A stretch of DNA of 64,000 nucleotides from Pachysolen tannophilus NRRL Y-2460 (taxonomy: Eukaryota). The DNA is taken from the NCBI GenBank assembly GCA_001661245.1, contig KV454017.1, positions 837,903 through 901,902 of the forward strand, read 5' to 3'. The position numbers were made by a program, and so were the translations under genes. Of this stretch, positions 3,081 through 64,000 are shown piece by piece (within the stretch, counting starts at the first letter, position 1; every line of letters starts with the position of its first letter). The notes under the pieces are model-generated. The model searched no databases and was not told where the DNA came from. It saw only the letters and a program-made list of their open reading frames with translations.

Positions 3081-3678
3081 TTAAGCTGATTCTGGGAACA
3101 ACTCTTCTTTCAAATCAACACCCAACTCTTCTCTAACATCTTTTAATTCTTCCAAGTATGCCTCATACTGCTCACTGTTTTCAACCTTATGTTTTAAACC
3201 TTCAAAAACTCTAACTGCAGTAGCATAGTCGTTAACTCTTCTACAAGCTCTCAAGGCTTTTTCAATAACAGCTGGTGATGGAACCAAATCGTATGAAAAA
3301 CAATTGTTTAAAACACGCTACAATGAAAAAAAAAAAAAAAAAAATAAAATTGAAAAACGTTAGTAAAGAAATCAAATAAAAAAATTACATTATAACCACT
3401 TTCTCTCACTCTCACTCTGTGTGTGAGTTTGTATATTTTTTATTATTATTATTATTATTACTTACCTGAACTTCAAATAAATCATATGCCTCTTCAAATT
3501 CTTTTTCGTATCTTGTAGTGAATTCTTCAAAAGTCTCTTCATGATGATCTGAATAATTTCTTCTAATAATAGAGTTATTCAAATTTAACAATTTAGCTTG
3601 ATTATAAGCTGTAATTCTTAAAGTCGATGGAGTACGAACTGAATTTCTAATAACTGAACGAATTGAATTTGCAAACAT
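3081..3678 (-). CDS. COX6: Cytochrome c oxidase subunit VI (COX5A family); 2 exons, 3678-3466 and 3317-3081, 149 aa
   Basis: Splicing joins EETFEEFTTRYEKEFEEAYDLFEVQ to RVLNNCFSYDLVPSPAVIEKALRACRRVND in frame. The N-terminus is an Arg/Ser-rich mitochondrial presequence. Confidence 0.95.
3318..3465 (-). other. Spliceosomal intron of COX6 (148 nt, phase 0)
   Basis: Donor GTAAGT at 3465, branchpoint TACTAAC at 3365-3359, poly-T tract, acceptor TAG at 3320-3318. Confidence 0.93.
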
Positions 3679-4065
3679 CTTTTATCTCTCTTATTAAATG
3701 ACAAGCTAATATTATATACTAAACTATTATATACGGTTGTACTAATAAGTTATTTTATTTTTATATTTATATATTGTTTATTTCAAATATATAATGGGTC
3801 TATCTTTTTATAAAAATGAGTAGATTTTTTAATTTTTTCTTGAATTTTTTTTTTCAGTGCTTTTTCAACTTAATGCTTCAAGAAAAATAGGTATTAAACC
3901 AATACTGTATGGTGGAAAAAAAGGGCAAAAAGAAATTTTTAAAAAAAAACTACTTTTTTTTTGCTAGTAAAATAGTTGAAAAGTTATTTAAAATAAAAAA
4001 AAAAGGAGATTTTTTTTTTTTGCAGACAGAGGAAACAAAATTACACTTTTTGAAAATCTTTTTTG

Positions 4066-14318: not shown

Positions 14319-16823
14319 ATGTCATCATGGCCAAGTAAGAAAGGTTTAGGGGTTCAACTAAGTTATGGTGTTGATGGTAGTGCTTTATACCTTCCTCGCG
14401 TTAATCAAGAGTATCCATTTATATTTGCTAAAGAAAGAAATTTAGGAGTGAATTTACACAAGGTTGAATACTCTACTGAGAAGTTGAACATAGATACAAA
14501 GTTGCATAATAATTATGATAACGTTAGTGGTAGAAATTATGGTAAGAATGAGGAAAAAATATTTGGTAATGAGGATGAGTTGTATATATCTGAGGAGTTG
14601 TTGAAATTTTTCAATAAGGAATCAAGTCAATTTTTATCCAATTTAATTTACGATCCAAATATTGATGGTTTAATGAAAATCAGTCTAGTAAAAATCAAAA
14701 AATTTGATACTTCTCAAGCAGTTATTGGATATTCTTCTGGTATAACTGGTAATATTCTGAATGTTTCGGTATTGACAAATAAGAAAACGAAAATAGTTGA
14801 TAAGACTACTAATAAAGTATATGAGATTTTAAAACCAGAATTTTTAAAACCTTTCCAAATAGATGTCATTTCAACTATAAAACAAATTGAATTTTCTAGA
14901 AATTATTACGAAGAAGAATTGCTGTGTCCCTATATGGCCATAAGAACTAACGACACTGTTTATATTTTAAAAATTTTCTTAAAAAATAAAAAAGATGAAG
15001 TCAATTTAGAATTAATTGGTGATCTTTCAAGTGATTCGTTTCATAATGAAATATTTGCAGATTTGGAATTTAATCCTTGGGATTTTACACAATTTGGTAT
15101 AATTGATATCAGAGGAAATTTTGGCATTTATAATATCAGGGAAAGAAATTTGGCAACATTGGTAAAGCTGAAAATTTCAGATGATGAAACTACTACATCT
15201 ATATATAACCCAGAAGAATTGTCAAATTTTAAAAAAATTAAATGGAGTTATGATTTGAATTCGATTTTCTTGATGGATAGATCATCGATTTATAGCTATA
15301 ATTTGAAAGATTTCACAATGATAAATTTAATCAGTGCAAATACCTGGTCAAAACTTTTAGATTTTGTTAATATCAACGATAAACTTTCAATATTATTGAC
15401 TTCAAAAGAAATCATAGTTGTAGATTTATCGGTATTAAATAAGGCACAAAGATTGATGTCTTGGAAACATTTTTTGAATGATAAAGATCCATCTTTAAAA
15501 ATTTCAATTTTGCAATTCAATAAGCAGCCTGATGATTTCTTAGTAATGATTTATTCCCAAACTCACTCATTAGTTTACTGCATAAAATTTGGTTTTAGAG
15601 ATGGTTTCATAAAATGTTTAAATGATCCTTTCCCAATAATATTAAATAACCAAGATGGTAGTCCTTTACAAAGTATTTTAACGGTGCCAATAGACTCTGT
15701 CGATGATGATATCCAGTTTTGCCTGTTATTCGAAATGAGCACAGATTTGGAAATTTTTGTGTCTATATATTCCACTATATCCAATGGTTCAATTTTGAGT
15801 ACTAATGAGAGAATAATTGAAAAAGAAGAAGAGGAGATTAAAAGATCCATTTCCCCAATAACAGTAGAAGCAGGTAACGTCAATAATAATAGTATCGTTT
15901 CTGGTGAAAATAGTTATTTGAGAATTAGTAAGACACAGTTGAAAGCTTTGTATTCTAAGTTAACTGAAAACGATGATATTTCTAGGAACTCCGACGACAC
16001 AACGGAAGAAGAAGAACAACAACAAGAACAAGATGAAGAAGAAGGCACTTCAAAGATTCAAAAATATGCCTTCAATATTAGTTCAACTTTGAATAATATA
16101 ATTCAAAGCGAGGATGAAGAAACTCCTTTCAAAACTTTGTTTGAGATAAGCGATGAATTTCCAACCAATTTAAGAGACTTTCCTGAACTAGATTCCATGA
16201 TTGAACAATTAATTGATCATTTCAAAGATTTGAGTTTTTACAATATTGATGATCTTAGGATACCCAATTTAATATCTGATGTTGATGGACAATATTCCAT
16301 TGCTAATATATTTAATTTTTTACTAAAGATATGGAAAGGTTCTAGTGTTGATGTTTCCGATAGTGATTTAAGAAAAATTGGAAAAATTTCACAATTTTTA
16401 GGATCTTCATTAGTGATATTTGGTAAGAAATCAAATGATTTTCTTCATCAGAAACAAATAAATACCCTATCACAGAAGTTACCAAAAGAGCTATCTAGGA
16501 TGGTTGATGATTGGGGAAGTGAATATACAACCGATGACCTCGAGAATAGCCTTGATGATAATACGCAGAGAAGTAGCATTTATACTTCTTCGACGCTACC
16601 ATCAGTTAAAGTGGCAGGGAGGGCTAGAACTAATACAGTTGGTCAAAAATCTTCATTGATAGGAGGAGTTTATAGTCAGCTACTGTCATCGCAGCTGTCA
16701 GATAATGACGGATCCCAAAGGGTTGTATCTACGCAAATTGAAAGGGGTAATTTCGCTGATAGAAACAAGAGAACCGTTTTAAATAAAAAGAAGAAGAAGA
16801 AGAAGAAGGGTGGTTTTGCTTAG
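14319..16823 (+). CDS. RRN6: RNA polymerase I core factor subunit Rrn6
   Basis: N-terminal WPSKKGLGVQLSYG, beta-propeller-like ADLEFNPWDFTQFGIIDIRGNF, LMSWKHFLNDKDPSLK, and C-terminal SQ-rich tail ending KKKKKKGGFA. Confidence 0.8.
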   Translation: MSSWPSKKGLGVQLSYGVDGSALYLPRVNQEYPFIFAKERNLGVNLHKVEYSTEKLNIDTKLHNNYDNVSGRNYGKNEEKIFGNEDELYISEELLKFFNKESSQFLSNLIYDPNIDGLMKISLVKIKKFDTSQAVIGYSSGITGNILNVSVLTNKKTKIVDKTTNKVYEILKPEFLKPFQIDVISTIKQIEFSRNYYEEELLCPYMAIRTNDTVYILKIFLKNKKDEVNLELIGDLSSDSFHNEIFADLEFNPWDFTQFGIIDIRGNFGIYNIRERNLATLVKLKISDDETTTSIYNPEELSNFKKIKWSYDLNSIFLMDRSSIYSYNLKDFTMINLISANTWSKLLDFVNINDKLSILLTSKEIIVVDLSVLNKAQRLMSWKHFLNDKDPSLKISILQFNKQPDDFLVMIYSQTHSLVYCIKFGFRDGFIKCLNDPFPIILNNQDGSPLQSILTVPIDSVDDDIQFCLLFEMSTDLEIFVSIYSTISNGSILSTNERIIEKEEEEIKRSISPITVEAGNVNNNSIVSGENSYLRISKTQLKALYSKLTENDDISRNSDDTTEEEEQQQEQDEEEGTSKIQKYAFNISSTLNNIIQSEDEETPFKTLFEISDEFPTNLRDFPELDSMIEQLIDHFKDLSFYNIDDLRIPNLISDVDGQYSIANIFNFLLKIWKGSSVDVSDSDLRKIGKISQFLGSSLVIFGKKSNDFLHQKQINTLSQKLPKELSRMVDDWGSEYTTDDLENSLDDNTQRSSIYTSSTLPSVKVAGRARTNTVGQKSSLIGGVYSQLLSSQLSDNDGSQRVVSTQIERGNFADRNKRTVLNKKKKKKKKGGFA

Positions 16824-17042: not shown

Positions 17043-19877
17043 TCAATCGGAAAAAATTAAGATGTCTATAATTTCATTTCTTCTCTTTTTTAAGTTCCTA
17101 GCTCTTGAATCCAATACCATCTTCTTTCTCGAAATTTTCATTGGCAATGATATCAAAATTTCTTTGAACTTTTCCAAGATTAAACTCCTGGTGAACTTGT
17201 TATCAACACTATCACCACCGCAATTTAAATAGCAAACTTTCAAAAAATTACATAAAAATATCAAAACATTTGCTCTAAGACCTGGTAATAACTCTGAAAG
17301 ATGTAATACGATATCTTCTTTTGACTTGAACATCCTGAAACTCCCATTGACATTGTCATTGCTGTCATTCGAGAGTTTCTGATTTCCCTTTGAATAGTAG
17401 CTATTAATTAACTCAATAGCAATATCAGGAGGAACAACACCACCTTCGAGGTTATTAAGTAAAATTAACAATATTTTGGAAACCGCACGAGTGGCGCTAT
17501 GCTTATAAGCCAAATTCTCTATGTCTAAACGTTTAATATCTAAATCTGCATTTGCATCAATATCGCTCATTATTTCAATTTCCAATTCAGTTAATTTGTA
17601 GAATTCTGCCTTTTCGAAATCAAACATCTCATCATAGCTGTTACCACTTAAAAAATCAACCAATTGATATATTTGTTTTGGTATTCCACCAAAAGTGGTA
17701 GTAGCCGAGGAGACAGAAAGTTTTTTAACATCAGAAGATGGAGCAGAAGTTTCAACATCGGTTGAATTGGAATCAGTAATATCTAAAGTATTACTATCAA
17801 CTGTCTTCAACAGTTCGTTAAGCAAATCTAATGATTTACCAAAATAAGTATCTCGGGCAGTGAACTTATAACTGATAAAGAAATCTTGAGCATTATGAAC
17901 TCTTAAGATTGAAGTATGACTAAATGATGGTAATCCTATGGGTAAAGTAGCTCTTATGGTAATCGTCAGAGATTCTCCAATTGGAAGATCCCCATTTTTT
18001 GGATCCAATTCTAAAATGTGAAAAAATTCATTTTCATATTTTGCAAAAGGTTGTTCATTAAGGTCAATTAACTCCCAGGATAATTTAGTATCACCATTAT
18101 TTTTCAAAACTGTTGTTAGCTCTGTAGGTGCTAAGATTGGCACTTCAGTTGCCTCAAGATCCAAATCAGAGATTTCGACAGTAGGTCTCGAATCATTTTC
18201 CAATTTATCAGTTTCTTTGAAATATTTAGACATTATTTCTGATCTTTTTTCGTAATCTATCAACGGTATTTGAGATAACTTAAAATCTGCAACCACTGGT
18301 TTGTGATCTGAAGAATTGAAATCCATGATACTATTATAATTTGTCTGGTCTAATTTCTCATGATCCGTATATAAGATTCTATCTGTATATGCTGGGCTTC
18401 TTGTAAGGTCATAATCCAAAGATTTGAATTTGTAAGTTGGCTTAAATTTTATTGGACCTTCTTTAAAATCTAAGAAAATTTTACCTCCTTGTTTTTCTTG
18501 GGAAAGACCATCAAATTTCAACATTTTATCAATACCTTCATCGTTATTATCTAAATATTCATCAATTGTTGTTCTTTCTAAGAAAATTCTATAATTTAAA
18601 TCTCCACAAACAAAAATAATACTATCTGTAGTATCTTTAGAAGAATCTTTAACATCTGATTCTTGAACGTTTAATTTTTCCTTTTCAGTATTGTTTGAAG
18701 ATGAAGTTGGAGCAGTTTTCTTTTGATCAACGATTTGAAACATTTCATCATCATTTTCCTCTGGATCCAGTAAATTCATGGAATAAAGTAAACTATTAAT
18801 ATTTTCATTATCTTGATTTTCATATAAAGTTTCATAGACATATTCTTCATTGTATGATTCAATCCATTTTTCATTAGCCAATTTTCCTCTTCCATCAATT
18901 TTCAATTTTTTCTCAATATCAAATAATTCATTTCTTCTATGAATTAATACATCTTTACTCAGTCCAGAAGCTAAATGACAATTCAAAAATTGTATCAGTA
19001 AACCTTTTGTATTTGATAAATCATCTGATCCAATTTTAAAATCTATTGAAATTGAGCCTTTATTAGCCCATACTCCTAATAAACCTGTTCCGAGGGATTT
19101 CGTATTTATATGACCAATTTGTTTTGAATATTTTTGCTTCAGTAAGACAATTGATGTTAAACCTAATAATCTATTTGTCTTTATAGATATAAAAGAATCA
19201 TCATTATCAGATTTGGTAGTTTTATTTAAAATTGAAAGTAAAATTGTTACCCAACCTTTAACTCTTTCTGGAGAAGAATGAAGATTTGTAGCAGTTAATG
19301 GTACAGTTTCTTGGAAACAGAAAAAATATAAATCTGCAAAACTTCCATCTTCTAAAATTAAAAGCTTTCCAAATTCTTCATCTGAATTTTCATATATAGG
19401 TTTACCAAATAAATTCCAAGTTACCAGTCTTAATATTAAATCACCTGGAATAATAAATCCATCTTTATTTTCTGATAACCTTCGGGATAATGAAGAACTT
19501 GAATTATTTATTTGTTCATCTACTTCCCCAACATTTTCATCTTGATAATTTGCAGTATTACCACTATTAAGTCTTCTCTCATTTATCATCTTTAACCCAT
19601 TATCCCATTGCATCTTGAAAAATTTTAATTCATTAACTCTATCTCTACCCAATACCCCAACCAAATTATCGTTTAAATATACTTGATACTTCCCACTAGA
19701 ATTCCTAACTTCTAATTTATCCTTAATAGATAATTTCTTCAAATCCTGTTGAGATAACGGTAATTCATTATTTAATTGAATGGCAAACCTCGGTACATCT
19801 CCAGGATCCTCACTGGAATTTTCACTGGAATCTGCCGGAAAGTAGTACAACGTCCTTTGGTCTGTCTTCAACAACAT
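17043..19877 (-). CDS. OCRL/INPP5B-type inositol polyphosphate 5-phosphatase with ASH and RhoGAP-like domains (first ATG 19877)
   Basis: 5-phosphatase motifs VTWN, FQE, NKGSI, NCHLA, GDLNYRI, PAYTDRIL and SSDHKPV. These are followed by LENDSRPTVEIS (ASH entry) and IPKQIYQLVDFL (start of the RhoGAP-like domain). Confidence 0.82.
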   Translation of the reverse strand: MLLKTDQRTLYYFPADSSENSSEDPGDVPRFAIQLNNELPLSQQDLKKLSIKDKLEVRNSSGKYQVYLNDNLVGVLGRDRVNELKFFKMQWDNGLKMINERRLNSGNTANYQDENVGEVDEQINNSSSSLSRRLSENKDGFIIPGDLILRLVTWNLFGKPIYENSDEEFGKLLILEDGSFADLYFFCFQETVPLTATNLHSSPERVKGWVTILLSILNKTTKSDNDDSFISIKTNRLLGLTSIVLLKQKYSKQIGHINTKSLGTGLLGVWANKGSISIDFKIGSDDLSNTKGLLIQFLNCHLASGLSKDVLIHRRNELFDIEKKLKIDGRGKLANEKWIESYNEEYVYETLYENQDNENINSLLYSMNLLDPEENDDEMFQIVDQKKTAPTSSSNNTEKEKLNVQESDVKDSSKDTTDSIIFVCGDLNYRIFLERTTIDEYLDNNDEGIDKMLKFDGLSQEKQGGKIFLDFKEGPIKFKPTYKFKSLDYDLTRSPAYTDRILYTDHEKLDQTNYNSIMDFNSSDHKPVVADFKLSQIPLIDYEKRSEIMSKYFKETDKLENDSRPTVEISDLDLEATEVPILAPTELTTVLKNNGDTKLSWELIDLNEQPFAKYENEFFHILELDPKNGDLPIGESLTITIRATLPIGLPSFSHTSILRVHNAQDFFISYKFTARDTYFGKSLDLLNELLKTVDSNTLDITDSNSTDVETSAPSSDVKKLSVSSATTTFGGIPKQIYQLVDFLSGNSYDEMFDFEKAEFYKLTELEIEIMSDIDANADLDIKRLDIENLAYKHSATRAVSKILLILLNNLEGGVVPPDIAIELINSYYSKGNQKLSNDSNDNVNGSFRMFKSKEDIVLHLSELLPGLRANVLIFLCNFLKVCYLNCGGDSVDNKFTRSLILEKFKEILISLPMKISRKKMVLDSRARNLKKRRNEIIDILIFSD

Positions 19878-27892: not shown

Positions 27893-28312
27893 ATGGTAAG
27901 TTGATTTATTTTTTTGATTTGTGGTTATGGTATTTATTACTAACATGTTGTATAATAACAAAAAATTTTTTTTTTTTCGATTTAGGGTAAAAGAAAGAAG
28001 AGTACTAGAAAGCCAGTTAAAAAGGTGAAGGAAGTTTTAGAAACTCAATTTAGTTGTTTATTTTGTAATCATGAGAAATCTGTTGTTTGTACTTTGGATA
28101 AGAAGAATAGTGTTGGTTCATTACATTGTAAGATTTGTGGTCAAAATTTCCAAACTCCAATAAATACTTTATCACAACCTGTGGATATTTATAGTGATTG
28201 GGTTGATGCTTGTGAAGCAGTTGCAGAGGAAATTGAAAGAGAAGGAGCAAATGCTGATGATTTTGAAGTGAAGGACGGTTATGATGATGAGGATGAAGAT
28301 GAAGATTACTGA
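27893..28312 (+). CDS. ELF1: Transcription elongation factor Elf1; exon 1 is the ATG only (27893-27895), exon 2 is 27986-28312; 109 aa
   Basis: Spliced product [34 protein letters not shown]...CKICGQNF...[14 protein letters not shown], a C4 zinc ribbon. Confidence 0.95.
27896..27985 (+). other. Spliceosomal intron of ELF1 (90 nt)
   Basis: ATG|GTAAGT donor, TACTAAC at 27938-27944, acceptor TTTAG at 27981-27985. Splicing restores the conserved MGKRKK start. Confidence 0.93.
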
Positions 28313-33023: not shown

Positions 33024-33214
33024 CAATATACATGTGAATGATGATTTTTTAAAAAATCGAATCAATTGGTGTATATATTTAAGTTCATATATGAAAGAAA
33101 AGCAAAACCCATTAGTTTTATAATAGACAAAAAAAAGAGCTAATCATATTTGAGTGTACACGACGTTTTTTTGGTTTTTGGTTTAAAAAAAAATAAAAAA
33201 AAAATTAAATAAAG

Positions 33215-33286
33215 CTCCGCGACGGGGAATTGAACCCCGGTCTACCACGCGACAAGCGGTAATTCTAGCCACTAAACTATCACGGA
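33215..33286 (-). tRNA. tRNA-Asp (anticodon GTC), 72 nt, no intron
   Basis: TCCGTGATAGTTTAGTGGCTAGAATTACCGCTTGTCGCGTGGTAGACCGGGGTTCAATTCCCCGTCGCGGAG folds as a cloverleaf with A and B boxes. Oligo-T lies downstream. Confidence 0.97.
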
Positions 33287-33862: not shown

Positions 33863-36684
33863 ATGGAGAATAAAGAATATCTTCAACCTGGTAAGTTCAA
33901 TTGAATAAAAATTATGGTAGCTTGGATTTTAATTGTACTAACCGAGTTTATTAGATTTTGATGCAAAGACATTAAAAGTTGCTCAGTTAAGAAATATATT
34001 ACTTGAATATGATGTTGAATATCCATCTTCAGCCAAAAAACTGGAATTGGTTAAAATATTCAATAATAGTATTAAACCCAAAGCATCACAATTGTTGAAA
34101 AATTATCAAGATATTATTAGTAATTCAAATGGTATTATCAGCGGTAAAATTGAAAATGATGAACAAAAACCGTTACAGAGTGGTACTGAAGAAGATGATG
34201 AGGTTTGGGATATTATTGATGACCAAAAACTGGAACCAAAAGTATTGGAACCAAGGAAAAATTTTACAACTCAAGAAAATGATAAAGTGTCATCACTGAT
34301 TGAAAAGACTTCTTCTATTAAAGATTCAAAAATTATTCAAAATGATGAATCGCTGCAACCAGTCTTGGTAAAGAAAACACATAAAAAGATAATTCCTAAA
34401 AAACGTTCTAATGAAAATGACAATGAAGAAAATTTTAGTCCTAGAAAAATTTCCAAGAAATCAGAAGAATCTCCAAAACTGGTGAAAGTTCCAACTTCTA
34501 GTGTTCCACATAAAAAAGAATCTTCTAATAAGGAAAAATCAGTTATCACTGCTACTGCTGCTGCAGAACAACAGAATCATACAAAGTCTAAGAACCATGT
34601 AATTGAAAAATCCCCTAAAAAAGATGAAAAAATTTTAATTGACAACAATAATGATTTGAAAAATAAGAAATCTTCTACAGCTAGAAAATTGCGTTCTGAT
34701 GATTCAAAAATTAAAAAATCTTCAAAAGGTGAAAAATCAAATAAATTACAAAAATCTGTCAAGTCTGAATTCATTAAACAACAAAAGAAAGAGGAGAAAC
34801 AAAAGAATGAAAAGAAAAATGCACTTCTTCATAATCTGGAATCTTCAAAACCTTCAGTATGGAACTCTTTTTTCTCTCCTGCTAAATCTCCTGCTAAATC
34901 TCCAGATGTATCTAATAGTGAATTTTTCACTCCAAATGGTTCTAATATTGGTACACCAAAAAAGAATACAGAAACTAATGGTAGAAGTGTTATGCCTAAT
35001 TTTTCCAGCTTAACACCATCATTTGCAAAGACTTTGGGTGTTAAAATTGTCAATTCGACTCCATTTTCTTCTTCTAACAAATCACGTAGAGGCCCGGAAA
35101 AGGAAATTAATACTGATACTGTTGAAACAAAAAATGACAATGACCAAAAAGAAAGCAAACTTCATTATCCAAATATAGAAGATGAAGAAGAAATCTTGGA
35201 AAAATTACAAGAAGAAACATCAATTCGTAACAAAGAAGCTCAGATTGATGCCAAAGAAGCTTTAAGTAGCTTGGAAGATTATAAAGACCAGTTAGAAAAT
35301 ATTAATGAAAATGGAAGTAACAAAATTCTTCATGTATTGAAAACTTTATTTTTATGTTTTTCATCTACAATTTTACTCACAATAGTAATTATGCTTACTA
35401 TTTCTTCTGTATCTTGGTACGCTGATCAGAGGAAAAATGTAGGATATTGTGGTAATGAAGTTCTTGTGAACTCTATGAAGTACTCTAAATTATCAGAATA
35501 TGAAGAACTTCTGCCATACGTTCAGTCATATGAAAAATTTTTGATTAAACATTTTAGACCAAACTGCAGACCATGTCCTGAACATGGTAAATGTTATCCA
35601 TATTTATCATTATATTGTGACGAAGATTATGTAATGGTTACACCATGGTACACTTTTGGAGGCTTGTATTTTGGAGGCTCTCAATGTGTTAAAGATTCTC
35701 AGAAAGAAGAAGCTGTTGACGAAATGATTTCATACGCTTTAGATATTTTGAGAGCAAAAAATGCAGAGAACTGTGGTAAAGATTATATAGGTTTCACAAC
35801 AGAAGAGATGTATGAAATATTGAAAGAAACTCGACAACCATGGTTAAGTGTTGAAGAATTTGATGAATTATGGGAAAAGGTTGTTGAAGATTTAGCTAGT
35901 GAGCCAGAAATTACTGTAAGGCAGGTTTTTTTTCCAACAAACAAAATAGAAAAGTGAAAATCATCTAAATCGAATAAAGATACAATTTTATTTATTATTC
36001 ACTTTTTTAATGTGATTGAATTGTGATATTTTTTTGATTTAGATTTTTTTTCCTTTTCATTGTTTTAACTGAAGAAGCATAATATTTACTAACATCAAAA
36101 AAAAATTTTTTTATTTATAGTTTCAACTCGATAATAACGCTCAGCAAAGAAAAATATCAAAATCAAGTTTTGAGCAGCATGCTGAGCCGGCAACTGAAAA
36201 CTTCCAAAACCAAATTATTCGGTCGTCATCAAAGTCGAAGTACAGTTTCAGATGTAAGTTACAGGAACATGTCTATAACAGATTGGCCTATCTTAAGTAC
36301 CCATTTTATGGAATAATGATTCTTGTATTATTTTATTGTTTTGCCAAATATCAGTATAATCAATATATGCAAGAAAAAATCAAAGTTAATTCTTTGTACA
36401 AATTAATAATAAAGAGGTTGAGAAAGCAAATTCAAATATATAAGAATGATACCACTGGGAAAGAAAGAGAATTTATGGTAATGATTCAAATAAGAGATAT
36501 GTTACTCGAAAATGATAGTCAGAAGACGAGGGACAGAATATGGACAAAAATTAGGAACAAAGTTGATCTAAACTCTAATATTGAACAGAGAATCAATGAA
36601 GTGGACGGAGAGCTTGTGAGAACATGGAGATGGATAGGTATAAATAATGACGATGACGAATTAATACAAGAAGCTAAATATTGA
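33863..36684 (+). CDS. SRC1: LEM/HEH inner nuclear membrane protein Src1/Heh1; exons 33863-33890, 33955-35924 (or 35915) and 36121-36684
   Basis: Spliced N-terminus MENKEYLQPDFDAKTLKVAQLRNILLEYDVEYPSSAKKxELVKIF (HEH domain). Then a TM helix, VGYCG, CRPCPEHGKC, EPEITVRQ, a second TM, and the MAN1/MSC C-terminus ending EVDGELVRTWRW. Confidence 0.9.
33891..33954 (+). other. SRC1 intron 1 (64 nt, phase 1)
   Basis: GTAAGT at 33891, TACTAAC at 33936-33942, TAG at 33952-33954. The frame is restored. Confidence 0.92.
35916..36120 (+). other. SRC1 intron 2, with candidate donors at 35916 (GTAAGG), 35921 (GCAGGT) and 35925 (GTTTTT)
   Basis: TACTAAC at 36087-36093 and TAG at 36118-36120. Phase-0 joining links the 636-aa ORF to the 133-aa ORF through an open frame. 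Confidence 0.8.
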
Positions 36685-37102
36685 TTTGTTCATAATAAAA
36701 ACTTTGTATCTTTTCATTTTGTTTTTCAATTATTTTAATACTTTTTTTGTTAATTAAATGTAACAATTTCCGAATATAAACATACAAATATAAACATACA
36801 AACTGTTCTTTTTAATGTACTGTATATTCAATTCCAAAAAGTTCATTTATCCATCTTCAAGCTGAATTTATTTGTATTTGTTTCGATCAAATACGTTGAA
36901 CTCAATAAATGTTAAGCTGATTAAAAAGATTAAATTTTTAAATTTTATAAATTTTTTAAAAAAAATTTTTTTTGTTTCTCTTTTTCGCTCTCCTAACTAA
37001 TCTTGATAAATTTAATAATTTTTGATTTTAACATTATAAAGCTGTTGAAACTAATTAATTACATTTATTACCATCAAGATACTTGTATCTAGTAAATTGG
37101 AA

Positions 37103-38164
37103 ATGGCATCAATATCGTCTTCGTCTTCTTCTTCTTCTTCTTCTATATGGAGAGTGCCTGAACCGATCAAGCTGGTTTTTGACACTTTCCCATTGAAGAC
37201 ATATTCGCTGAATAAGAAATCAGATTTGACTTTATTTCCCCAAAATACAACAAACAAGTTTGAATTGATTAAAAAAGATCAAGATCAAAGTCAATTTTCT
37301 AGTCAAGGAAATTTCCAACTTGGTGTTTATAATGTTTCAAAATATGTTAAGGATCCAAATGTGTTGATACCAACAGATCCGATTTGTTTATCCACGCTAC
37401 TTATAATAAATTTAAGAAATGGGTTATTATTGCCCAAAGTGAAGTTTCCCGAGGGTGACAATGGGAACATCAAGAATAACAACTTTATAACAATATTATC
37501 GTACCATGCATCTTATGATGGTGAATTGCCACTTTTAATTGAAGATAATAGTGGTAAAAATCTTCAAAAATCAATTAAATCCACTAGTTTAATAAACGAT
37601 TTAAATTTGACAAGGTGTACAGATAATAAAGAATTTTTCAAATGTCAAGTTGTTGATTCTATATTATATGATTGTTGGGTAATAACTGTATTGTATGAAT
37701 TATCTGATTTACAAAAATTAAAGATTTATACAGATTTATTAAATGATAAAGAAAATTCTATGGTATTAGATACTTTAACTTTAAACGATTTACTCGCTTC
37801 CACTTTAATAACAAGATTTTCCTTTAACATTAGAAACGAGAATCTTGCATCTTATTGGTCAAACAATAATTTGATTAAAAATCTTGTATATCGAAGATCA
37901 CTTTTACTGAAAATTGAAATGGAAAAAAATTCAATTTTTCGCAAGACTTTAGAAATTTTGGAAATTTTTGAACAAGAATTAGCTAAATCAAATTTTTTCT
38001 TAGAAGAAAATAATAAAGAATTACCAAGTATATTAGATTGTAAAATTGCTGGTTTAGTCTATTGTATTTTACAATGGTGTGAAGGAAGCAAACTTTATGC
38101 AATGATTAACACTTTACCCAATCTCAAATCCCATTGTTATAGATGTATAGATAAATGTATATAA
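37103..38164 (+). CDS. SAM35: SAM complex subunit Sam35 (metaxin-like; first ATG 37103)
   Basis: WRVPEPIKLVFDTFPLKTY, LGVYNV, PTDPICL and ASYDGELPLLIED. Adjacent to STE12 as in S. cerevisiae. Confidence 0.82.
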   Translation: MASISSSSSSSSSSIWRVPEPIKLVFDTFPLKTYSLNKKSDLTLFPQNTTNKFELIKKDQDQSQFSSQGNFQLGVYNVSKYVKDPNVLIPTDPICLSTLLIINLRNGLLLPKVKFPEGDNGNIKNNNFITILSYHASYDGELPLLIEDNSGKNLQKSIKSTSLINDLNLTRCTDNKEFFKCQVVDSILYDCWVITVLYELSDLQKLKIYTDLLNDKENSMVLDTLTLNDLLASTLITRFSFNIRNENLASYWSNNNLIKNLVYRRSLLLKIEMEKNSIFRKTLEILEIFEQELAKSNFFLEENNKELPSILDCKIAGLVYCILQWCEGSKLYAMINTLPNLKSHCYRCIDKCI

Positions 38165-38231
38165 AAAAGAATAAACGGATTCTAGAACTTGTTTGCCCTT
38201 ATCTTACTTATACTACTAACCAAAATCGAAT

Positions 38232-38811
38232 TGAAACACTCTTTCCAAACTCTTTGGTTTCATACAAAAATATAAAGTCAATAATTTATATATTGGTATT
38301 ATTTATGGGCACAAAAAAAAAATTTAAGCCGCACATATTATACATACACACATACAAATTCCCATGTTTTACTTTTAACGTATGAACATGAAACAAGTAA
38401 CAGCTTGATAGAGGAAAGAGGTTTAAAAGACAATAGATTGATAGATTGATAGATTGATAGATAGATAGATAGATAAATAGATAAAGATTAATTATATTTT
38501 CTGAAACAAGATATACAATAGAAGAAGAAGTAAAACGGGGGAAGGAGAAAAAGGGTTTTTTTCATTTTGAGGTACTTTAGGTACTTTAGAATTGTTTTTT
38601 TTTCAAATCGGTGAACTTAACTTTTACTACTTGTTTTTTTTATTATCTTATCCTATAGTACCACATTTTTTTTTTACCTAAAACTGTCCAAAAATGTGCC
38701 TCATTTACATACATTGTAAATAAAAACAGTAAATACATTGGGGACTTAACTTTACTTGTTTTTTTCTTTTTTCTTTTTTTTTAATATATTTATCTATACC
38801 TTGATGTTTCA
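38232..38811. promoter_or_regulatory. Cluster of pheromone response elements (TGAAACA) upstream of STE12
   Basis: Perfect TGAAACA at 38232, 38389 and 38502 (+), and at 38805-38811 (-). Confidence 0.65.
38433..38487 (+). repeat. GATT/GATA microsatellite
   Basis: atagattgatagattgatagattgatagatagatagatagataaatagataaagat. Confidence 0.8.
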
Positions 38812-39323
38812 TAATTTTTTCATTGAAAAACCATCATTAATTGATTCTTGCGGATGATTATATTATTATCATCTTTGAAAAAATTGTATTAGGATCTTAC
38901 ATTTTGAAACCTTTAATATATATTCTCTTGAAACCCAAACCCAAACCCAAATAATTTTTTTTTTTATTTTGGCTTTTTTTGGCTTTTTGTTTTTTTTTGT
39001 TTTTGGCTTTTTTGTTGCAACAAGAAGTATATTATTAAACAATATTAACTTTGTTATTTTCAAGTATTTTACTAGATAATCATCAAGTTAATTCTATCAT
39101 TCATTCATTCGTTTTACTTTAATACCGATATTTCTTCAATTCGTTTCAATTTTTCATTACCATTTCAATATTGACTTTTTCTTTGTTGAAATTTTTTTTA
39201 TTATTATTATTCATATTTCCATTGTTGTTTATCCATTAGAAATTATAACGCTTTGAATTTCCATTATTTATTTTCTTTTTAGTTTGTTTTGTTTGGTTTG
39301 TTTGGTTTAATGGATAGTCGAAA

Positions 39324-41507
39324 ATGCCCTATACCACGTCTATAGTGACGAACAATTCTGTTCCTCCTCCTCCAGCTGAATCGGTGGAAGAATCATTAAG
39401 GTTAATTGATGATTTAAAATTTTTTTTAGCTACAGCGCCTGCTAATTGGCAAGAAAATCAAATAATTAGAAGATATTATTTAAATAATCAAGAAGGTTTT
39501 ATAAGTTGTATTTTTTGGAAAAATATTTATTATATAACAGGAACTGATATTGTACGTGCTATTTCATATAAATTTAAACATTTTGGTAGAGAACTTTCAG
39601 ATCAAAAAAAATTTGAAGAAGGTGTATTTAGTGATTTAAGAAGTTTAAAATGTGGTACAGATGCTGTATTAGAAATGCCAAAATCAGATTTTTTAAAATT
39701 TTTACATAAAAATTCATGTTTAAGAACTCAAAAGAAACAAAAAGTATTTTTTTGGTTTAGTGTTCCACATGATAAATTATTTAGTGATGCTTTAGAAAGA
39801 GATTTGAAAAAAGAATTAAGTAATCAAAATGCAACTACAAGACCTATGCATGAACCACTGTTATCGTTTAAATATGATCAAAGTAAACCATTATATGATC
39901 AATTATTAAATCATTTGAATTCGAAAAAGAAACAAGTTGAAGATCTCGATTCAGATGCTACTAATATTTTAACTGCCAGTGATGTAGCTTATGGAGATGA
40001 TAATAATAATATAGATATGGATAAGACTTTAAGTACTGTGATTGAAAATTCCAATAATGAAAACGATGTAGAAGCACAGTATTTAATAGATTCCGAAGTA
40101 GATGAGAAATCAAGTCCTTTATTTGTGTCTGAAAAGCTTCCGGGCACTGGTGTTAGTGTCACAACAGCGGCAGCAGCAGCAGCAGCAGTAGCAGCAGCTA
40201 CTGCTGCTGCAAGTGCAGGAGATGATGTACTGGACACTATAAATGCTGATGATGATCATATAGGAGAAAATGCTAGAAGATCTGGATCAATAAAATCAGA
40301 TTATGAAGATGATGATTTCCCCTTGGATTATTTTCAAGCTGCTGATGATTACCTTATAGAGACTAATGATGGTATACCTGGTGATTTCTTAGATCCTTCG
40401 ATCTTCTTTAATGATGCTCTGCTGCATCATCAACAACAACAACAACAGCTTCTTATTGATCAATCTGAAAAATATGTTCAACCTTCATCTATAACGAATT
40501 ACCCCCAATTTCCACCAACAACAGCCGGACAACAATTTTTCAAAACAACAAATTCACCTATTCAACTGCAACTGCAGTTTTACCAGCTTCAGCAGCAGCA
40601 ATTGCAGTTGCAACAACAACAACAACAACAACTGCTGCTGCAACTGCAACTGCTGCAACAACATCAACAACAACAACAACTGCTGCTACAACTACAACTG
40701 CAGCAGCAGCAGCAGCTGCTGCTGCTGCCTTATGATTATTTAAGCCCGGGCATATACGACGACCCTTTAGCGATACAACAGTTTCCATCATACCATGAAT
40801 TCTCAGCAACAGGACCTCAAATACCGCCACCAATATCACACTCAACTTTGGATCCATATATCTCATATGCTTCGCAATACCCTACAATACCGTCATCGCA
40901 ACAATTGTTATACTCTTATTATGAGCAACAACTGCAACAAGTACAACTGTTTTCTCCTGCAAATGTACAATTTTTAAGAAGTTTTGCTTCATCTCTGGTT
41001 CATCCAACTTCTGCGAATTCTTCGAATTTCCCACACCTGTCCAATCCTCCTCCTAAATCTGCAAGATTAATTCAACAACATCATAAAAATATGCTTTGGA
41101 AAAGACAACTGCTGTTAAATCAAAAGAATGGGAGTACAAACTTAAATGGAGACACTAATTCTAAGATAACCAAGCCAAATGGGTTGAAGAGACAAGTTTA
41201 CAAAAACACGGCTTTACAAAAATTACATTTACAAGATAATACTGATACTACAACCAACATTTCTAATATCGATGAAAACAGTACCAGCAGTGCTCCTAAC
41301 GACACCAATAATACCACTATTAATTCTATTACAAATACTACAAATACTACTACCACCGGGAATGGCAATAGCACCAGCACTTCCACCATTTCTACAGATT
41401 CAGAATCTCAGTTACAAAGACCGCAGGACTCGGTTAGAAAACCAAAGATCAAAATAGAACAACAGCCGGATTTAAATGACTATTTAGTAAATACTGGAGA
41501 TAGTTGA
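39324..41507 (+). CDS. STE12: STE-domain transcription factor Ste12/Cph1
   Basis: LKFFLATAPANWQENQIIRRYYL, KKFEEGVFSDLRSLKCG, CLRTQKKQKVFFWFSVPHDKLFSDALERDLKKE and DDFPLDYF. No C-terminal C2H2 fingers. Confidence 0.96.
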   Translation: MPYTTSIVTNNSVPPPPAESVEESLRLIDDLKFFLATAPANWQENQIIRRYYLNNQEGFISCIFWKNIYYITGTDIVRAISYKFKHFGRELSDQKKFEEGVFSDLRSLKCGTDAVLEMPKSDFLKFLHKNSCLRTQKKQKVFFWFSVPHDKLFSDALERDLKKELSNQNATTRPMHEPLLSFKYDQSKPLYDQLLNHLNSKKKQVEDLDSDATNILTASDVAYGDDNNNIDMDKTLSTVIENSNNENDVEAQYLIDSEVDEKSSPLFVSEKLPGTGVSVTTAAAAAAAVAAATAAASAGDDVLDTINADDDHIGENARRSGSIKSDYEDDDFPLDYFQAADDYLIETNDGIPGDFLDPSIFFNDALLHHQQQQQQLLIDQSEKYVQPSSITNYPQFPPTTAGQQFFKTTNSPIQLQLQFYQLQQQQLQLQQQQQQQLLLQLQLLQQHQQQQQLLLQLQLQQQQQLLLLPYDYLSPGIYDDPLAIQQFPSYHEFSATGPQIPPPISHSTLDPYISYASQYPTIPSSQQLLYSYYEQQLQQVQLFSPANVQFLRSFASSLVHPTSANSSNFPHLSNPPPKSARLIQQHHKNMLWKRQLLLNQKNGSTNLNGDTNSKITKPNGLKRQVYKNTALQKLHLQDNTDTTTNISNIDENSTSSAPNDTNNTTINSITNTTNTTTTGNGNSTSTSTISTDSESQLQRPQDSVRKPKIKIEQQPDLNDYLVNTGDS

Positions 41508-48139: not shown

Positions 48140-50077
48140 ATGATTAATCTCTTTACGAAATCAATAGCAGGTAATCGATTATTAAGAAGTTATTCTAGGA
48201 ATTTATTTACTACAAGTGTAAGATTAGAGCAACAAATAACATCCAATGTTAAAAGGATTGAACCTGTTCATAAACTTATTCATAAACCTGTTCATTTAAG
48301 ACCGTATCAACATGATTGTATAGAAGCTTGTTTAAAAGCTTTAAATAATAATGTCAAGAGAATAGTGGTCAGTATAGCTACTGGAGGAGGTAAGACTGTT
48401 ATTTTTTCCAATTTAATACCAAAGATTAAACCAAATACCACAACTAGTCGAGGGAATAAAGTATTGATATTGGTACATAGAAGAGAACTAGCTGCACAAG
48501 CTGCAAATACAATAAACAGGTTTTTACCTAATTATTCTGTTGAAATTGATATGGGGGATATGAAAGCAAGTCAAAATGCTGATATTACAATTGCTTCAGT
48601 TCAGACTTTGAATAGTCTTGAATGTAAAAGATTATTTAATTATAACCCAAATGATTATAAAGCGATTATAGTTGATGAATGTCATCATGCAGTTTCCAAG
48701 ACTTATATGAATATATTTGATTATTTCAATTATAAAGACTCTGGAATACCTATTATTGGATTTTCTGCAACTGTTCAACGTCATGATAAGATTCCATTAG
48801 GTAAAATTTTTGAAAAAGTGGTTTTCAATAAAGATTTATTAGATATGATTACTGAAAATTGGTTATGTGATGTTTCAATTACTCCTGTATATGGTTCTTT
48901 AAAATTAAATTGTGTCGAAATAACTAAAAGTGGTGATTATGATATTGGTAGTTTAGCAAAATATGTAAATACAAATATCATTAATGAATTGGTTTTAAAA
49001 ACATACCTTGATCGACGTATAAAAGATGGATTTAAATCATCATTGTTTTTTTGTGTAAATATCGAACACGTTAAAGAATTGTCCGATTTATTTAGGCAAA
49101 ATGGTGTAAATTGTCAATATGTTACTGGAACTAGCTCAAAGCAAGAAAGGCAAGCTATAATAGATGATTTTAAAAATGGTAAAATTGATGTGTTGATGAA
49201 TTGTGGGATATTTACCGAAGGTACAGATATTCCAAATATTGATTCTATATTTATTGTTAGACCAACAAAATCTAGACCCTTATTGATTCAAATGATTGGA
49301 AGAGGCTTAAGATTACATGATACAAAGCAGAAATGTCATATAATAGATTTTGTTGATTCTGGTGATACAGGTATAGAACTTTCGCCAACTTTAAATGGTC
49401 AAATTCCTAAAAAAGGAACTGCACTATTTCCACAAAATAATACAAGAAATGAATCAGGAATTCAGGAGATTGAAAGTGTGGAACAAGTTCAATATATCAC
49501 TTATGATAGCATTCATCAGTATTTGGAAAATGTAAAACCAAAAAAACATGATGATTTCGTTTCTTTCTTGAAAGATGAATTACCTTGGGTAAGAATTGGA
49601 CGAAAATCATGGGTATTGGAATTAAACTTTACTGATTTTTTAAGAGTCGATTTGGAATCCACAGGGCTTTATCATCTTAAGAAATATAAAAATGTCGGCA
49701 AGATAATAAAGATAAAACCAATTTTAGTGTGTAAATCTAAAGATTTAAATGAAATTTTTGCTGAATCTAAATTATACATTGAAAATAATGGTATCAATTT
49801 ATATAAACTTTTAATGAGAGATAAAGCTCTATTATTAACCAAGAAACAACAAGATTTCTTGAATAAAAAATTAATAGACGTTGCTTCAAGATCACCAAAA
49901 ATCGATCTAGATAATTTTCAAAAAATTTTGAACAAAATTCTTCCAGAAATGAGAAGGTATGAAGCAACAGATTTAATTTTTGGCTTTATTGTTGGAGGAA
50001 GATATTGTCTAGAGGAATTTATTAAAAACAGAATTCTCATTAAAAAGAATGTAGATAAAAATAATTTATTGCTGTAG
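48140..50077 (+). CDS. IRC3: Mitochondrial SF2 DNA helicase Irc3
   Basis: Presequence, LRPYQ, ATGGGKT, VDECHH, GFSAT, FTEGTDIPNID and QMIGRGLR. Confidence 0.9.
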   Translation: MINLFTKSIAGNRLLRSYSRNLFTTSVRLEQQITSNVKRIEPVHKLIHKPVHLRPYQHDCIEACLKALNNNVKRIVVSIATGGGKTVIFSNLIPKIKPNTTTSRGNKVLILVHRRELAAQAANTINRFLPNYSVEIDMGDMKASQNADITIASVQTLNSLECKRLFNYNPNDYKAIIVDECHHAVSKTYMNIFDYFNYKDSGIPIIGFSATVQRHDKIPLGKIFEKVVFNKDLLDMITENWLCDVSITPVYGSLKLNCVEITKSGDYDIGSLAKYVNTNIINELVLKTYLDRRIKDGFKSSLFFCVNIEHVKELSDLFRQNGVNCQYVTGTSSKQERQAIIDDFKNGKIDVLMNCGIFTEGTDIPNIDSIFIVRPTKSRPLLIQMIGRGLRLHDTKQKCHIIDFVDSGDTGIELSPTLNGQIPKKGTALFPQNNTRNESGIQEIESVEQVQYITYDSIHQYLENVKPKKHDDFVSFLKDELPWVRIGRKSWVLELNFTDFLRVDLESTGLYHLKKYKNVGKIIKIKPILVCKSKDLNEIFAESKLYIENNGINLYKLLMRDKALLLTKKQQDFLNKKLIDVASRSPKIDLDNFQKILNKILPEMRRYEATDLIFGFIVGGRYCLEEFIKNRILIKKNVDKNNLLL

Positions 50078-52103: not shown

Positions 52104-52794
52104 TTATTCTCTATTTCTTTCGGAGGAATAAAATTGGTGAGGGAAAATCATTTGTTCTACAGTTTTCTTTCTGTGATCATTTTCATCTTCTTCCTCTGTA
52201 TCTGTTACATTACTGCTAATACTTTCTTTTTGTAATTTTTCCTTAGTGGGTGTATAGTATCTCTTATACCTTGTCTTCTTGCCTTCGGTGTCTCTTTTTG
52301 CAATTAAATCTTTGATGCTGTTTCGTCCAACTACCAGAGGCAGCGTTTCTGGTGGATTCAACCTTACCGATCCTGATAATGTCTTATTTTTTTTCTTGCC
52401 TTCTGGGTTGTTGGTTTCATTGTTCCTACCTGATGCGAGTGAAGCTGAAGAGTGTGAATTGTAGTCATTATGAGATGGTGGTAGTAACTGCAGAGGAGGC
52501 GGCGGCGGTGGTGGCAGTGGCAGTGGCAGATGCAGATGTGGCAGATGTGGCAGTTGCAGTTGCAGTTGCAGCGGCAGAGGCAGTGGTGGCAGTGGCTGCA
52601 GTAACGGCAAGGAGGACATCATGAATTGCGGTGGCACTAAAAACATTCCTGGAGGAGGTGGGAAAAAGGGAAATGGATGTTGTTGATCTCCTTGATTTGG
52701 ATTTTGTTGAAAGAATTGAGGTGGCGGCGGTGGGAAAGGCAGACCCACAAAGGGTTGGAAACTTTGATTTGGATTTTGTTGTTGCTGCTGTTGT

Positions 52795-52847
<53 letters not shown>

Positions 52848-54242
52848 TTGCAGCAGTTGCAGCAGCTGCTGATGCTGCTGTTGTTGTTGTATAAACTGTT
52901 GCGTTATGAAATCCTGTTGTCTCTTTGCTTCTTCTTCTTCTTCTCTTTTTCTCTTTAATTTTTCATTTTCCAATTTTTCTTTCAATTGTTTCTGTTTTTT
53001 CAATTCTTTATCTTTACGTTTTTGAATTGTATACTTTCTATATTCTTTATCTTCATTTTTTTTCCAATATTCAAATAATGCCAAATCTGATTCTATTTCT
53101 TTTGAAGATAATCCATTAACATAAGAAATTTCTTTAACCAAAGGTTCTAAAGATTCTTTAAAAATATCTTGTTTTTGAAGTATACTATTTTTTAAAAGTT
53201 TTTTAAATCTATTTTCAACTTCAATAGAGATTTCATTTTCAGCTTCTTTATTATATAATGAATGATTTTTTCTTAATGATTTTCTATATTGTAATTGATT
53301 TGATCTTAAAATTTGATTCTTATTTGTTCCATTAAATTCATTTTCAATTTGAAATTTTTCTTTATATAAAGAATTAATTATTTTTTGTTTCCCATCAGAT
53401 TGATTTTTTAAAAATTGTTTCCAAATAATATTTCTATTATTTTCTGTATCTTTTTCAATCATTTCTGCTTGGTAATTATATCTATTTTTAATAATTTGTA
53501 AATTTTTTTCAAAAGGTTTTAATAATTGATTAAACAGTTCATTATACATTGGAATTTCTAATTTTGTAGGTTGTAAAGGAGGAGATGGTGGTGGAGATAA
53601 ATTTTCTAAATCTTCACCAGTTATAGAATTTAATCTTCTCTTTTTATTAATCAACTTATGATAATAATGAGGTAATTCTGTACTATAGACTTCATCAATA
53701 TAAGGTCTTTGTAATGCTATTGAATCTTCAAATTTCGTAAAATTTTTATTAATTGTCTTTGTTGTTGAATTAACAATTGAAATTAATTCATCAATTCTTG
53801 TAATTCTTGAATTTGCAAATTCCAGTGATAAATCTTTATAATCACTTGATAATTTAGCTTCTAATTTATTTATCTCTGAAATATCTTCAAGTTTATTTAT
53901 TTTTTTATTTATTAAATCACAATCTTCAATACTAAGAAATTTAGAATCATCCAATGATATTTGTAAATTTTCCTTTTCTTTTTCTTCAAGTTTCAATTGC
54001 AGCTCTTGTTTTAATTCTAATTCTAATTCCAACTCTAATTCAAGATCATCATCATAATCATCAGTATGACCATCAACTTCAGTTTTAGTACCCACATTTA
54101 CAACTTTCTTATTTTTAGTACCATTATCAGTATTAAAAGATTCCATAGTATTTGAAAATGATTTCCCAGAATCTTTTCTTTCAAACTCTGAAGCATCTGA
54201 TCCATCCAGTATCAAGTCTCCAACAAACCCAGAATCACTCAT
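52104..54242 (-). CDS. Coiled-coil protein, possibly Dep1/Sds3 family (Rpd3L HDAC subunit), with Q- and P-rich tracts; first ATG 54242
   Basis: RYNYQAEMIEKDTENNRNIIWKQFLKNQSDGKQKIINSLYKEKFQIENEF and VNGLSSKEIESDLALF resemble the Sds3-like domain pattern. Recognised by eye only. Confidence 0.45.
52775..52890 (-). repeat. Coding polyglutamine (CAA/CAG) repeat
   Basis: (tgttgc)n on the + strand corresponds to alternating CAA-CAG codons. Confidence 0.9.
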
Positions 54243-59446: not shown

Positions 59447-59989
59447 ATGTTGAGGTCGAGGAATATAACACAAATACTCTTGGAGTCGATTCAGCCTATT
59501 TCAGGTTTAGCGCCTTTATCGGCATCACTTTTATCTGTTAACGGGCAGCCATTATGTTCTGTATTTAGCAAAGAATATGATAATAATGTTTCTAATAAGG
59601 AACAAGACGAGTTATCATCGTTTGATCCAATGGATAATTTGAATATATATTCTTTGATAGCGGTGAATAAGTTTAGAGAATGTACGGTTGATGATGGGAA
59701 TAAAGATGGTTGGATGATTGTGCAATTGGATAATGGGTATTATTTAGCTTTAAAAAAATTGAAATTGTTACTGTCACTGTCACTGTCAGTGACACTGGCG
59801 CTGTCGCAATCACTGTCGCTGAGTCTGCTGCTGGAGTCGGTAGGAAAGGAAGATGATGATTCACCTTTGATACTAATGTTGGTTTGTGATGATGGGTTTC
59901 CAAAGAAAATAAGCAAGTTGAAATTAGATAGAGTATCCGAGGTTTTAGAAAAAGGATTGAAAGGTTATAAGGCCAATAGTGATAATTAA
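59447..59989 (+). CDS. Roadblock-fold protein, probably EGO complex subunit Slm4/Ego3
   Basis: MLRSRNITQILLESIQP, LSASLLSVNGQPL, DNLNIYSLIA and C-terminal LKLDRVSEVLEKGLKGY resemble Slm4/Ego3. Confidence 0.55.
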   Translation: MLRSRNITQILLESIQPISGLAPLSASLLSVNGQPLCSVFSKEYDNNVSNKEQDELSSFDPMDNLNIYSLIAVNKFRECTVDDGNKDGWMIVQLDNGYYLALKKLKLLLSLSLSVTLALSQSLSLSLLLESVGKEDDDSPLILMLVCDDGFPKKISKLKLDRVSEVLEKGLKGYKANSDN

Positions 59990-63709: not shown

Positions 63710-64000
63710 TTAAGCAGTTTCAAAAATTAAACTTCTAACTTGATACATTTCATTGGATTCTTCAATATCTTCCCAATTTCCAATATAATCATCTTTACCT
63801 CTGACAATTCCAGGTAAAGTTTTACCTCTAGAATACCTTTTCCAAATTTTTTTCGCTTCTTCATCTGTACCCAAATCTCTCATTGTGAATTCAACTTTAT
63901 TTGCTTTTAAAATGGTGATAAGCCTGTTCGTTCTTGTGGCAATCTGGAAACCACCAGCTAACGAAGTATATAAATATACTGGTTCATCCTCATAAGTTAG
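63710..64000 (-). CDS. 3' end of an SH3BGR/glutaredoxin-like (thioredoxin-fold) protein; 5' part lies outside the window
   Basis: Manual translation: LTYEDEPVYLYTSLAGGFQIATRTNRLITILKANKVEFTMRDLGTDEEAKKIWKRYSRGKTLPGIVRGKDDYIGNWEDIEESNEMYQVRSLIFETA*. Confidence 0.7.
   Translation of the reverse strand, partial: LTYEDEPVYLYTSLAGGFQIATRTNRLITILKANKVEFTMRDLGTDEEAKKIWKRYSRGKTLPGIVRGKDDYIGNWEDIEESNEMYQVRSLIFETA

Follow-up and report, generated by a model that had tools for sequence, protein, structure and literature searches.

Which amino acid does CUG specify in the nuclear DNA of Pachysolen tannophilus NRRL Y-2460? The question is raised by a stretch of 64,000 nucleotides from contig KV454017.1 (positions 837,903 to 901,902 of the forward strand; hereafter, the window), in which the genes for Ste12 and for the Man1/Src1 protein Src1/Heh carry CTG codons at sites where an initial annotation, made from the sequence alone, had expected conserved alanine. 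That annotation proposed that CUG is decoded as Ala and not as Leu or Ser. Both a residue-column test on two of the window's proteins and published transfer RNA (tRNA) and peptide data bear the proposal out, and we consider it nearly certain that this DNA is read with the P. tannophilus nuclear code, listed by NCBI as table 26 ("Pachysolen tannophilus nuclei: CTG=A"). The present analysis contributes the column statistics and a comparison with public annotation, in which CTG is Ala; the tRNA and peptide evidence comes from the literature.

Residue preferences at CTG codons

Residue preferences were scored in two alignments, one of Ste12 residues 1 to 230 and one of an inositol-polyphosphate 5-phosphatase-like protein with 149 homologs. 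The latter is encoded by an open reading frame (ORF) of 944 codons, 7 of them CTG, at positions 17046 to 19877 on the minus strand, and contains the Pfam domain Exo_endo_phos2. For each codon, log-odds of every amino acid were computed over its columns, and columns that were at least 60% occupied were kept, which left six usable columns for CTG. Over these six, Ala scored +1.7 bits, Val −3.1, Thr −4.2, Ser −4.4, and Leu −17.2, so that the total for Ser lay 6.1 bits below that for Ala. The procedure recovered the standard residue for 35 of the 36 non-CTG codons with at least six columns, and for 49 of 58 when all other codons were considered.

To these scores we added a resampling control based on 20,000 draws of six-column sets. 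None of the 20,000 sets drawn from true Leu codons reached the observed Ala-minus-Leu margin, and the observed Ala-minus-Ser margin was reached by 4.3% of true-Ser draws; sets drawn from true Ala codons reached the observed margins in 71 to 73% of draws. CTG thus fitted Ala better than Leu or Ser over the six columns, with modest power against Ser. The composition of the columns told the same story: Leu was the commonest residue in none of the six CTG columns compared to 50 of the 102 columns of standard Leu codons, and a hydrophobic residue was commonest in two of the six compared to 83 of the 102. Ser was commonest in one. CTG codons were therefore found neither mainly at Leu or hydrophobic columns, where the standard code would place them, nor mainly at Ser columns, as the CUG-Ser code (table 12) would predict. 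The initial annotation had suggested tabulating the residues at CTG columns as a check, and this tabulation, run on Ste12 and the phosphatase, ranked Ala first. Taken together, the six columns favor Ala, reject Leu, and disfavor Ser.

Among the phosphatase columns, the one at codon 246 (19140 to 19142, minus strand) held V 70, A 41, I 16, C 7, S 4, and L 2 among the 149 homologs, and Ala was the more frequent of the two leading residues (A 13, V 9) among the top 30.

Ste12 and its CTG at codon 179

The Ste12 ORF lies at 39324 to 41507 on the plus strand and comprises 727 codons, of which 25 are CTG; its STE domain is recognized by Pfam with an E value of 8.8e-56. Codon 179 (39858 to 39860, plus strand) is an in-frame CTG in the context H-E-P-[CTG]-L-S-F, just as the initial annotation had placed it. 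A protein search with the N terminus as query, in which CTG was masked as X, returned 2083 matches, and 120 of these, as listed, were aligned. In these 120 homologs the column held Ala in 111, Ser in 9, and Leu in none, and the flanking residues were Pro in all 120 and Glu in 115. The annotation had also given the Saccharomyces cerevisiae motif as EPALSF. Its alanine stands, as seen in the record named S. cerevisiae (P0077); that record itself reads GPALSF, and EPALSF is found in S. mikatae (P0055). From the alignment, Leu is excluded at column 179, and this column alone does not separate Ala from Ser.

The translated Ste12 ORF had no exact match in the public protein collection, whether table 26 or table 1 was used, and none of the matches listed in the homolog search exceeded 77% identity. 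The public Ste12 gene model for P. tannophilus seems to be missing or different. We note that the Sam35 and Ste12 genes adjoin on the same strand (37103 to 41507, plus strand), and that an 830-residue protein of another yeast, P0017, carries both the SAM35 and the STE Pfam domains. P0017 is probably a fused gene model, and its two domains suggest that the adjacency of Sam35 and Ste12 may be conserved.

Src1/Heh and the CTG in its HeH domain

The second site lies in the Src1 ORF (33942 to 35957, plus strand), whose product matches the Pfam domains HeH (E value of 1.3e-15) and Man1-Src1 C-terminal (MSC; E value of 3.9e-45). The CTG at 34041 to 34043 (plus strand), codon 34 of the ORF, is in frame in the context P-S-S-A-K-K-[CTG]-E-L-V; both the sequence and the HeH match confirm the reported SSAKK-x-ELV motif within this domain. 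Set against the public model, the gene as a whole maps to 33863 to 36684 on the plus strand, with exon 1 at 33863 to about 33889, exon 2 at 33954 to 35915, and exon 3 at 36121 to 36681 followed by the stop codon. All seven Src1 CTG codons fall in exon 2. When CTG was masked, BLASTP aligned the protein to PACTADRAFT_35670 (P0125), a hypothetical protein of P. tannophilus NRRL Y-2460, with 647 identities over 656 positions, and the nine mismatches consisted of the seven CTG codons, each given as Ala in the deposited protein, plus two residues at a splice junction.

Homologs of the HeH site were few. In the full-length search, low-complexity words dominated and three matches were returned, and residues 1 to 60 as query gave two; a search of the HeH query against PDB gave a single chance-level match (E value of 1.5) to an unrelated protein. 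The CTG column held Gly, Ser, and Ala in the three non-self homologs found and no Leu. The claim that fungal HeH domains commonly read SAKKA was therefore weakly tested: Ala was present in one of three homologs, and all three residues are small. Because Ser occurs in both the Ste12 and the HeH columns in some relatives, these two sites alone cannot tell Ala from Ser.

Two features of the Src1 gene structure were also observed. According to the public protein, a short exon 1 (MENKEYLQP) and then a 5′ intron roughly 64 bases long precede the HeH domain (33863 to 33953, plus strand). At the 3′ end, the public model splices position 35915 to 36121; the unspliced ORF would read ...EPEIT-VRQVFFPTNKIEK and then stop (35892 to 35957), and the homologs P0126 and P0127 end or run on with EPE(V/I)x-VRQV, which resembles the unspliced reading. 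The 3′ intron may be used alternatively, as in S. cerevisiae SRC1, or the gene models of the other species may have been left unspliced.

Public annotation and published decoding evidence

We looked up the translations of five window ORFs (phosphatase, Rrn6, Bud22, Sam35, and Ste12) in the public protein collection. With table 26, four of the five were matched exactly (all save Ste12), all four on one contig of 1,081,017 bases; with table 1, none was. The public phosphatase record, P0129 (944 residues), is identical to the window ORF except for Ala at its seven CTG codons. These protein matches to P. tannophilus NRRL Y-2460 also place the genome in the "Ala clade," which comprises Pachysolen, Nakazawaea, and Peterozyma as described in Krassowski et al. 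2018 (PMC5951914). The initial annotation had called CUG-Ala decoding established for P. tannophilus and these relatives, in agreement with Mühlhausen et al. 2016 (PMC4937558) on the species and with Krassowski et al. on the clade; the latter paper cites Riley et al. 2016 as the second discovery paper.

The direct evidence for decoding is published. As reported in PMC4937558, the P. tannophilus tRNA-CAG groups with alanine tRNAs, carries G3:U70 and A73, and is described as being without the extended variable arm seen in tRNAs for Ser and Leu; a single tRNA-CAG, of the Ala type, is reported for Pachysolen. The same report gives 16,824 CUG occurrences affecting 80% of genes and, from liquid chromatography-tandem mass spectrometry on strain NRRL Y-2460, Ala at 97.2% of the 907 CUG positions fully supported by fragments. 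Within the 64,000-nucleotide window, which was the only DNA scanned with ARAGORN, no tRNA-CAG was found; the sole tRNA is a tRNA-Asp(GTC) at 33214 to 33286 on the minus strand, between a rhomboid (Pcp1-like) gene and Src1.

These observations fit the following mechanism. CUG is read as Ala because the sole tRNA that reads it is an alanine tRNA whose anticodon mutated to CAG, the ancestral Leu-tRNA(CAG) being absent. Since alanyl-tRNA synthetase recognizes G3:U70 and A73 in the acceptor stem, and not the anticodon, the mutated tRNA is still charged with Ala, and each of the 123 CTG codons in the coding stretches of the window should be read as Ala. The initial annotation was likewise right that CTG was mistranslated in the ORF list supplied with the DNA, as the standard or the bacterial table gives Leu at these 123 codons.

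Other CTG columns and alternative decodings

Several observations weigh against Ala, or limit how far the window itself can argue for it. The Ala in public annotation stems from the code that the depositors selected and does not count as an independent line of evidence. In the column test, the only failure among the 36 controls was the Ser codon TCC (n = 6), which was called Ala, and the phosphatase columns 294, 306, and 637 hold mainly S/T, E/D, and E/Q, respectively. Among the alignments made, just one window CTG is found at a strongly conserved alanine. Pairwise PDB alignments with S. cerevisiae chains, made for the L1-domain protein, Sam35, Dbf4, Rrn6, and Lrp1, placed the residues D, L, N, R, A, V, R, L, R, R, E, and N opposite 12 CTG codons, with a single Ala and two Leu among them. 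The Ala lies in Sam35 (PDB chain 7btw_B), opposite codon 36 (37208 to 37210, plus strand), and the two Leu residues lie opposite Rrn6 codon 147 (14757 to 14759, plus strand) and codon 123 of the L1-domain protein; four more CTG codons in the compared proteins lie within alignment gaps or in tails that did not align. In the myosin motor domain, three CTG columns were gapped or variable; at the variable ones, animal myosins from PDB have E, D, L, T, or K. Most CTG codons thus sit at variable, polar columns, and the PDB alignments alone do not pick Ala. Overall, the in-window case for Ala over Ser, which depends on six alignment columns, is modest.

Three other decodings were weighed against Ala. 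Decoding could be ambiguous, chiefly Ala with a sizeable minority of another residue, and among the 907 CUG positions in PMC4937558, 8 showed Ala together with another residue and 18 showed another residue only; ambiguity at a low level is, moreover, beyond what DNA sequence can exclude. The same report finds similar numbers of deviations at the unambiguous codon AUG and concludes that decoding is unambiguous, and we regard a sizeable minority residue as very improbable.

Decoding as Ser, as in the Candida (Ser1) or the Saccharomycopsis/Ascoidea (Ser2) clades, draws on the miscalled TCC codon, on the HeH column with Ser in one of its three homologs, and on phosphatase column 294, where Ser leads with 36 of 149. 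Ser is also tolerated at Ste12 column 179, and its nine bearers there, among them Wickerhamomyces and Ogataea, are partly the nearest matches of the 120 listed, a further point against Ala. The 6.1-bit deficit of Ser over six columns, a margin that few true-Ser sets attain, speaks against this decoding, as do the published P. tannophilus peptides with their 97.2% Ala, and we hold it to be extremely improbable.

That CTG is standard Leu, the Ste12 and HeH sites being ordinary Ala-to-Leu substitutions, has a negligible chance of being correct: the two Leu residues among the 12 S. cerevisiae positions and the hydrophobic phosphatase column 151 (Leu in 13 of 149) would suit it, and against it stand the column scores with their resampling, the lack of any Leu-led CTG column, the 120 Ste12 homologs listed, the failure of all five table-1 look-ups, and the Ala-mass peptides at CTG published for NRRL Y-2460 (PMC4937558).

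The rhomboid (Pcp1) and Slm4 ORFs each gave no match against PDB. A Cox6-like candidate in two pieces (3084 to 3317 and 3415 to 3681, minus strand) with an intron-sized gap between them, a zinc-ribbon, Elf1-like candidate ORF (27986 to 28309, plus strand), and a glutaredoxin-like candidate fragment at the window edge (63713 to 64000, minus strand) were named by eye and fall outside the 150-codon ORF list; none contains CTG, and they therefore offer no test columns.

Usage and clustering of CTG codons

Of 29 coding stretches counted (14,892 codons), 20 contain CTG, with 123 such codons in total. If read as Ala, CTG makes up 19% of the Ala codons in these stretches (123 of 650, the other 527 being GCN). 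Their distribution is uneven, in that 54 of the 123 lie no more than five codons from another CTG, in three repeat-like low-complexity tracts. In Ste12, where 21 of the 25 CTG codons are spaced in this way in Q-rich tracts, the clustered Q/A tract spans codons 415 to 468 (40566 to 40727, plus strand). The second set comprises P/A and Q/A tracts (52491 to 52601 and 52851 to 52865, minus strand) in a 712-codon ORF at 52107 to 54242. The third is an A/S tract at Slm4 codons 109 to 129 (59771 to 59833, plus strand), which is built of (CTGTCA)n repeats, with two CTGs separated by a single GCG codon for Ala. When translated with table 26, the CTG-clustered tracts become ordinary Ala-rich runs. We also observed that a helicase ORF (48140 to 50077, plus strand; 645 codons; ResIII and Helicase_C) has CTG as its last codon before the stop. 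The G+C content of the window is 23 to 32%, which is not at odds with P. tannophilus being an AT-rich yeast.

Were this clustering genome-wide, the captured codon might have been re-populated largely through slippage and expansion of CTG microsatellites and not through point substitutions at alanine sites, a scenario that we consider unlikely. The terms "repeat" and "low complexity" are absent from the main text of PMC4937558; no wider literature search was made.

Comparison with known codes

The CUG-Ala inference is supported and was already known, since the discovery of this code, in 2016, was made in P. tannophilus itself; our results add nothing to the 2016 and 2018 papers on this point. 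Their value is practical: homology, domain, and structure work on the P. tannophilus genome should use NCBI table 26.

Two other yeast reassignments of CUG offer a comparison. In CUG-Ser1 yeasts (Candida and Debaryomyces; table 12), a neighboring clade of budding yeasts, the same codon was captured by a non-leucine tRNA with a CAG anticodon, as described in PMC5951914. That system differs in inserting Ser by way of a serine-derived tRNA, and the CTG columns of the window fit Ser worse than Ala. The CUG-Ser2 or stochastic decoding of Ascoidea and Saccharomycopsis is presented in PMC5951914 and PMC6041473 as a third independent yeast reassignment of CUG; such genomes may retain Ser and Leu tRNA-CAG genes in competition, in contrast to the single gene of the Ala type reported for Pachysolen. 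Against the P. tannophilus nuclear code of the Ala clade (table 26), there is no difference at all: organism, codon, and amino acid are the same, and the window is the published case.

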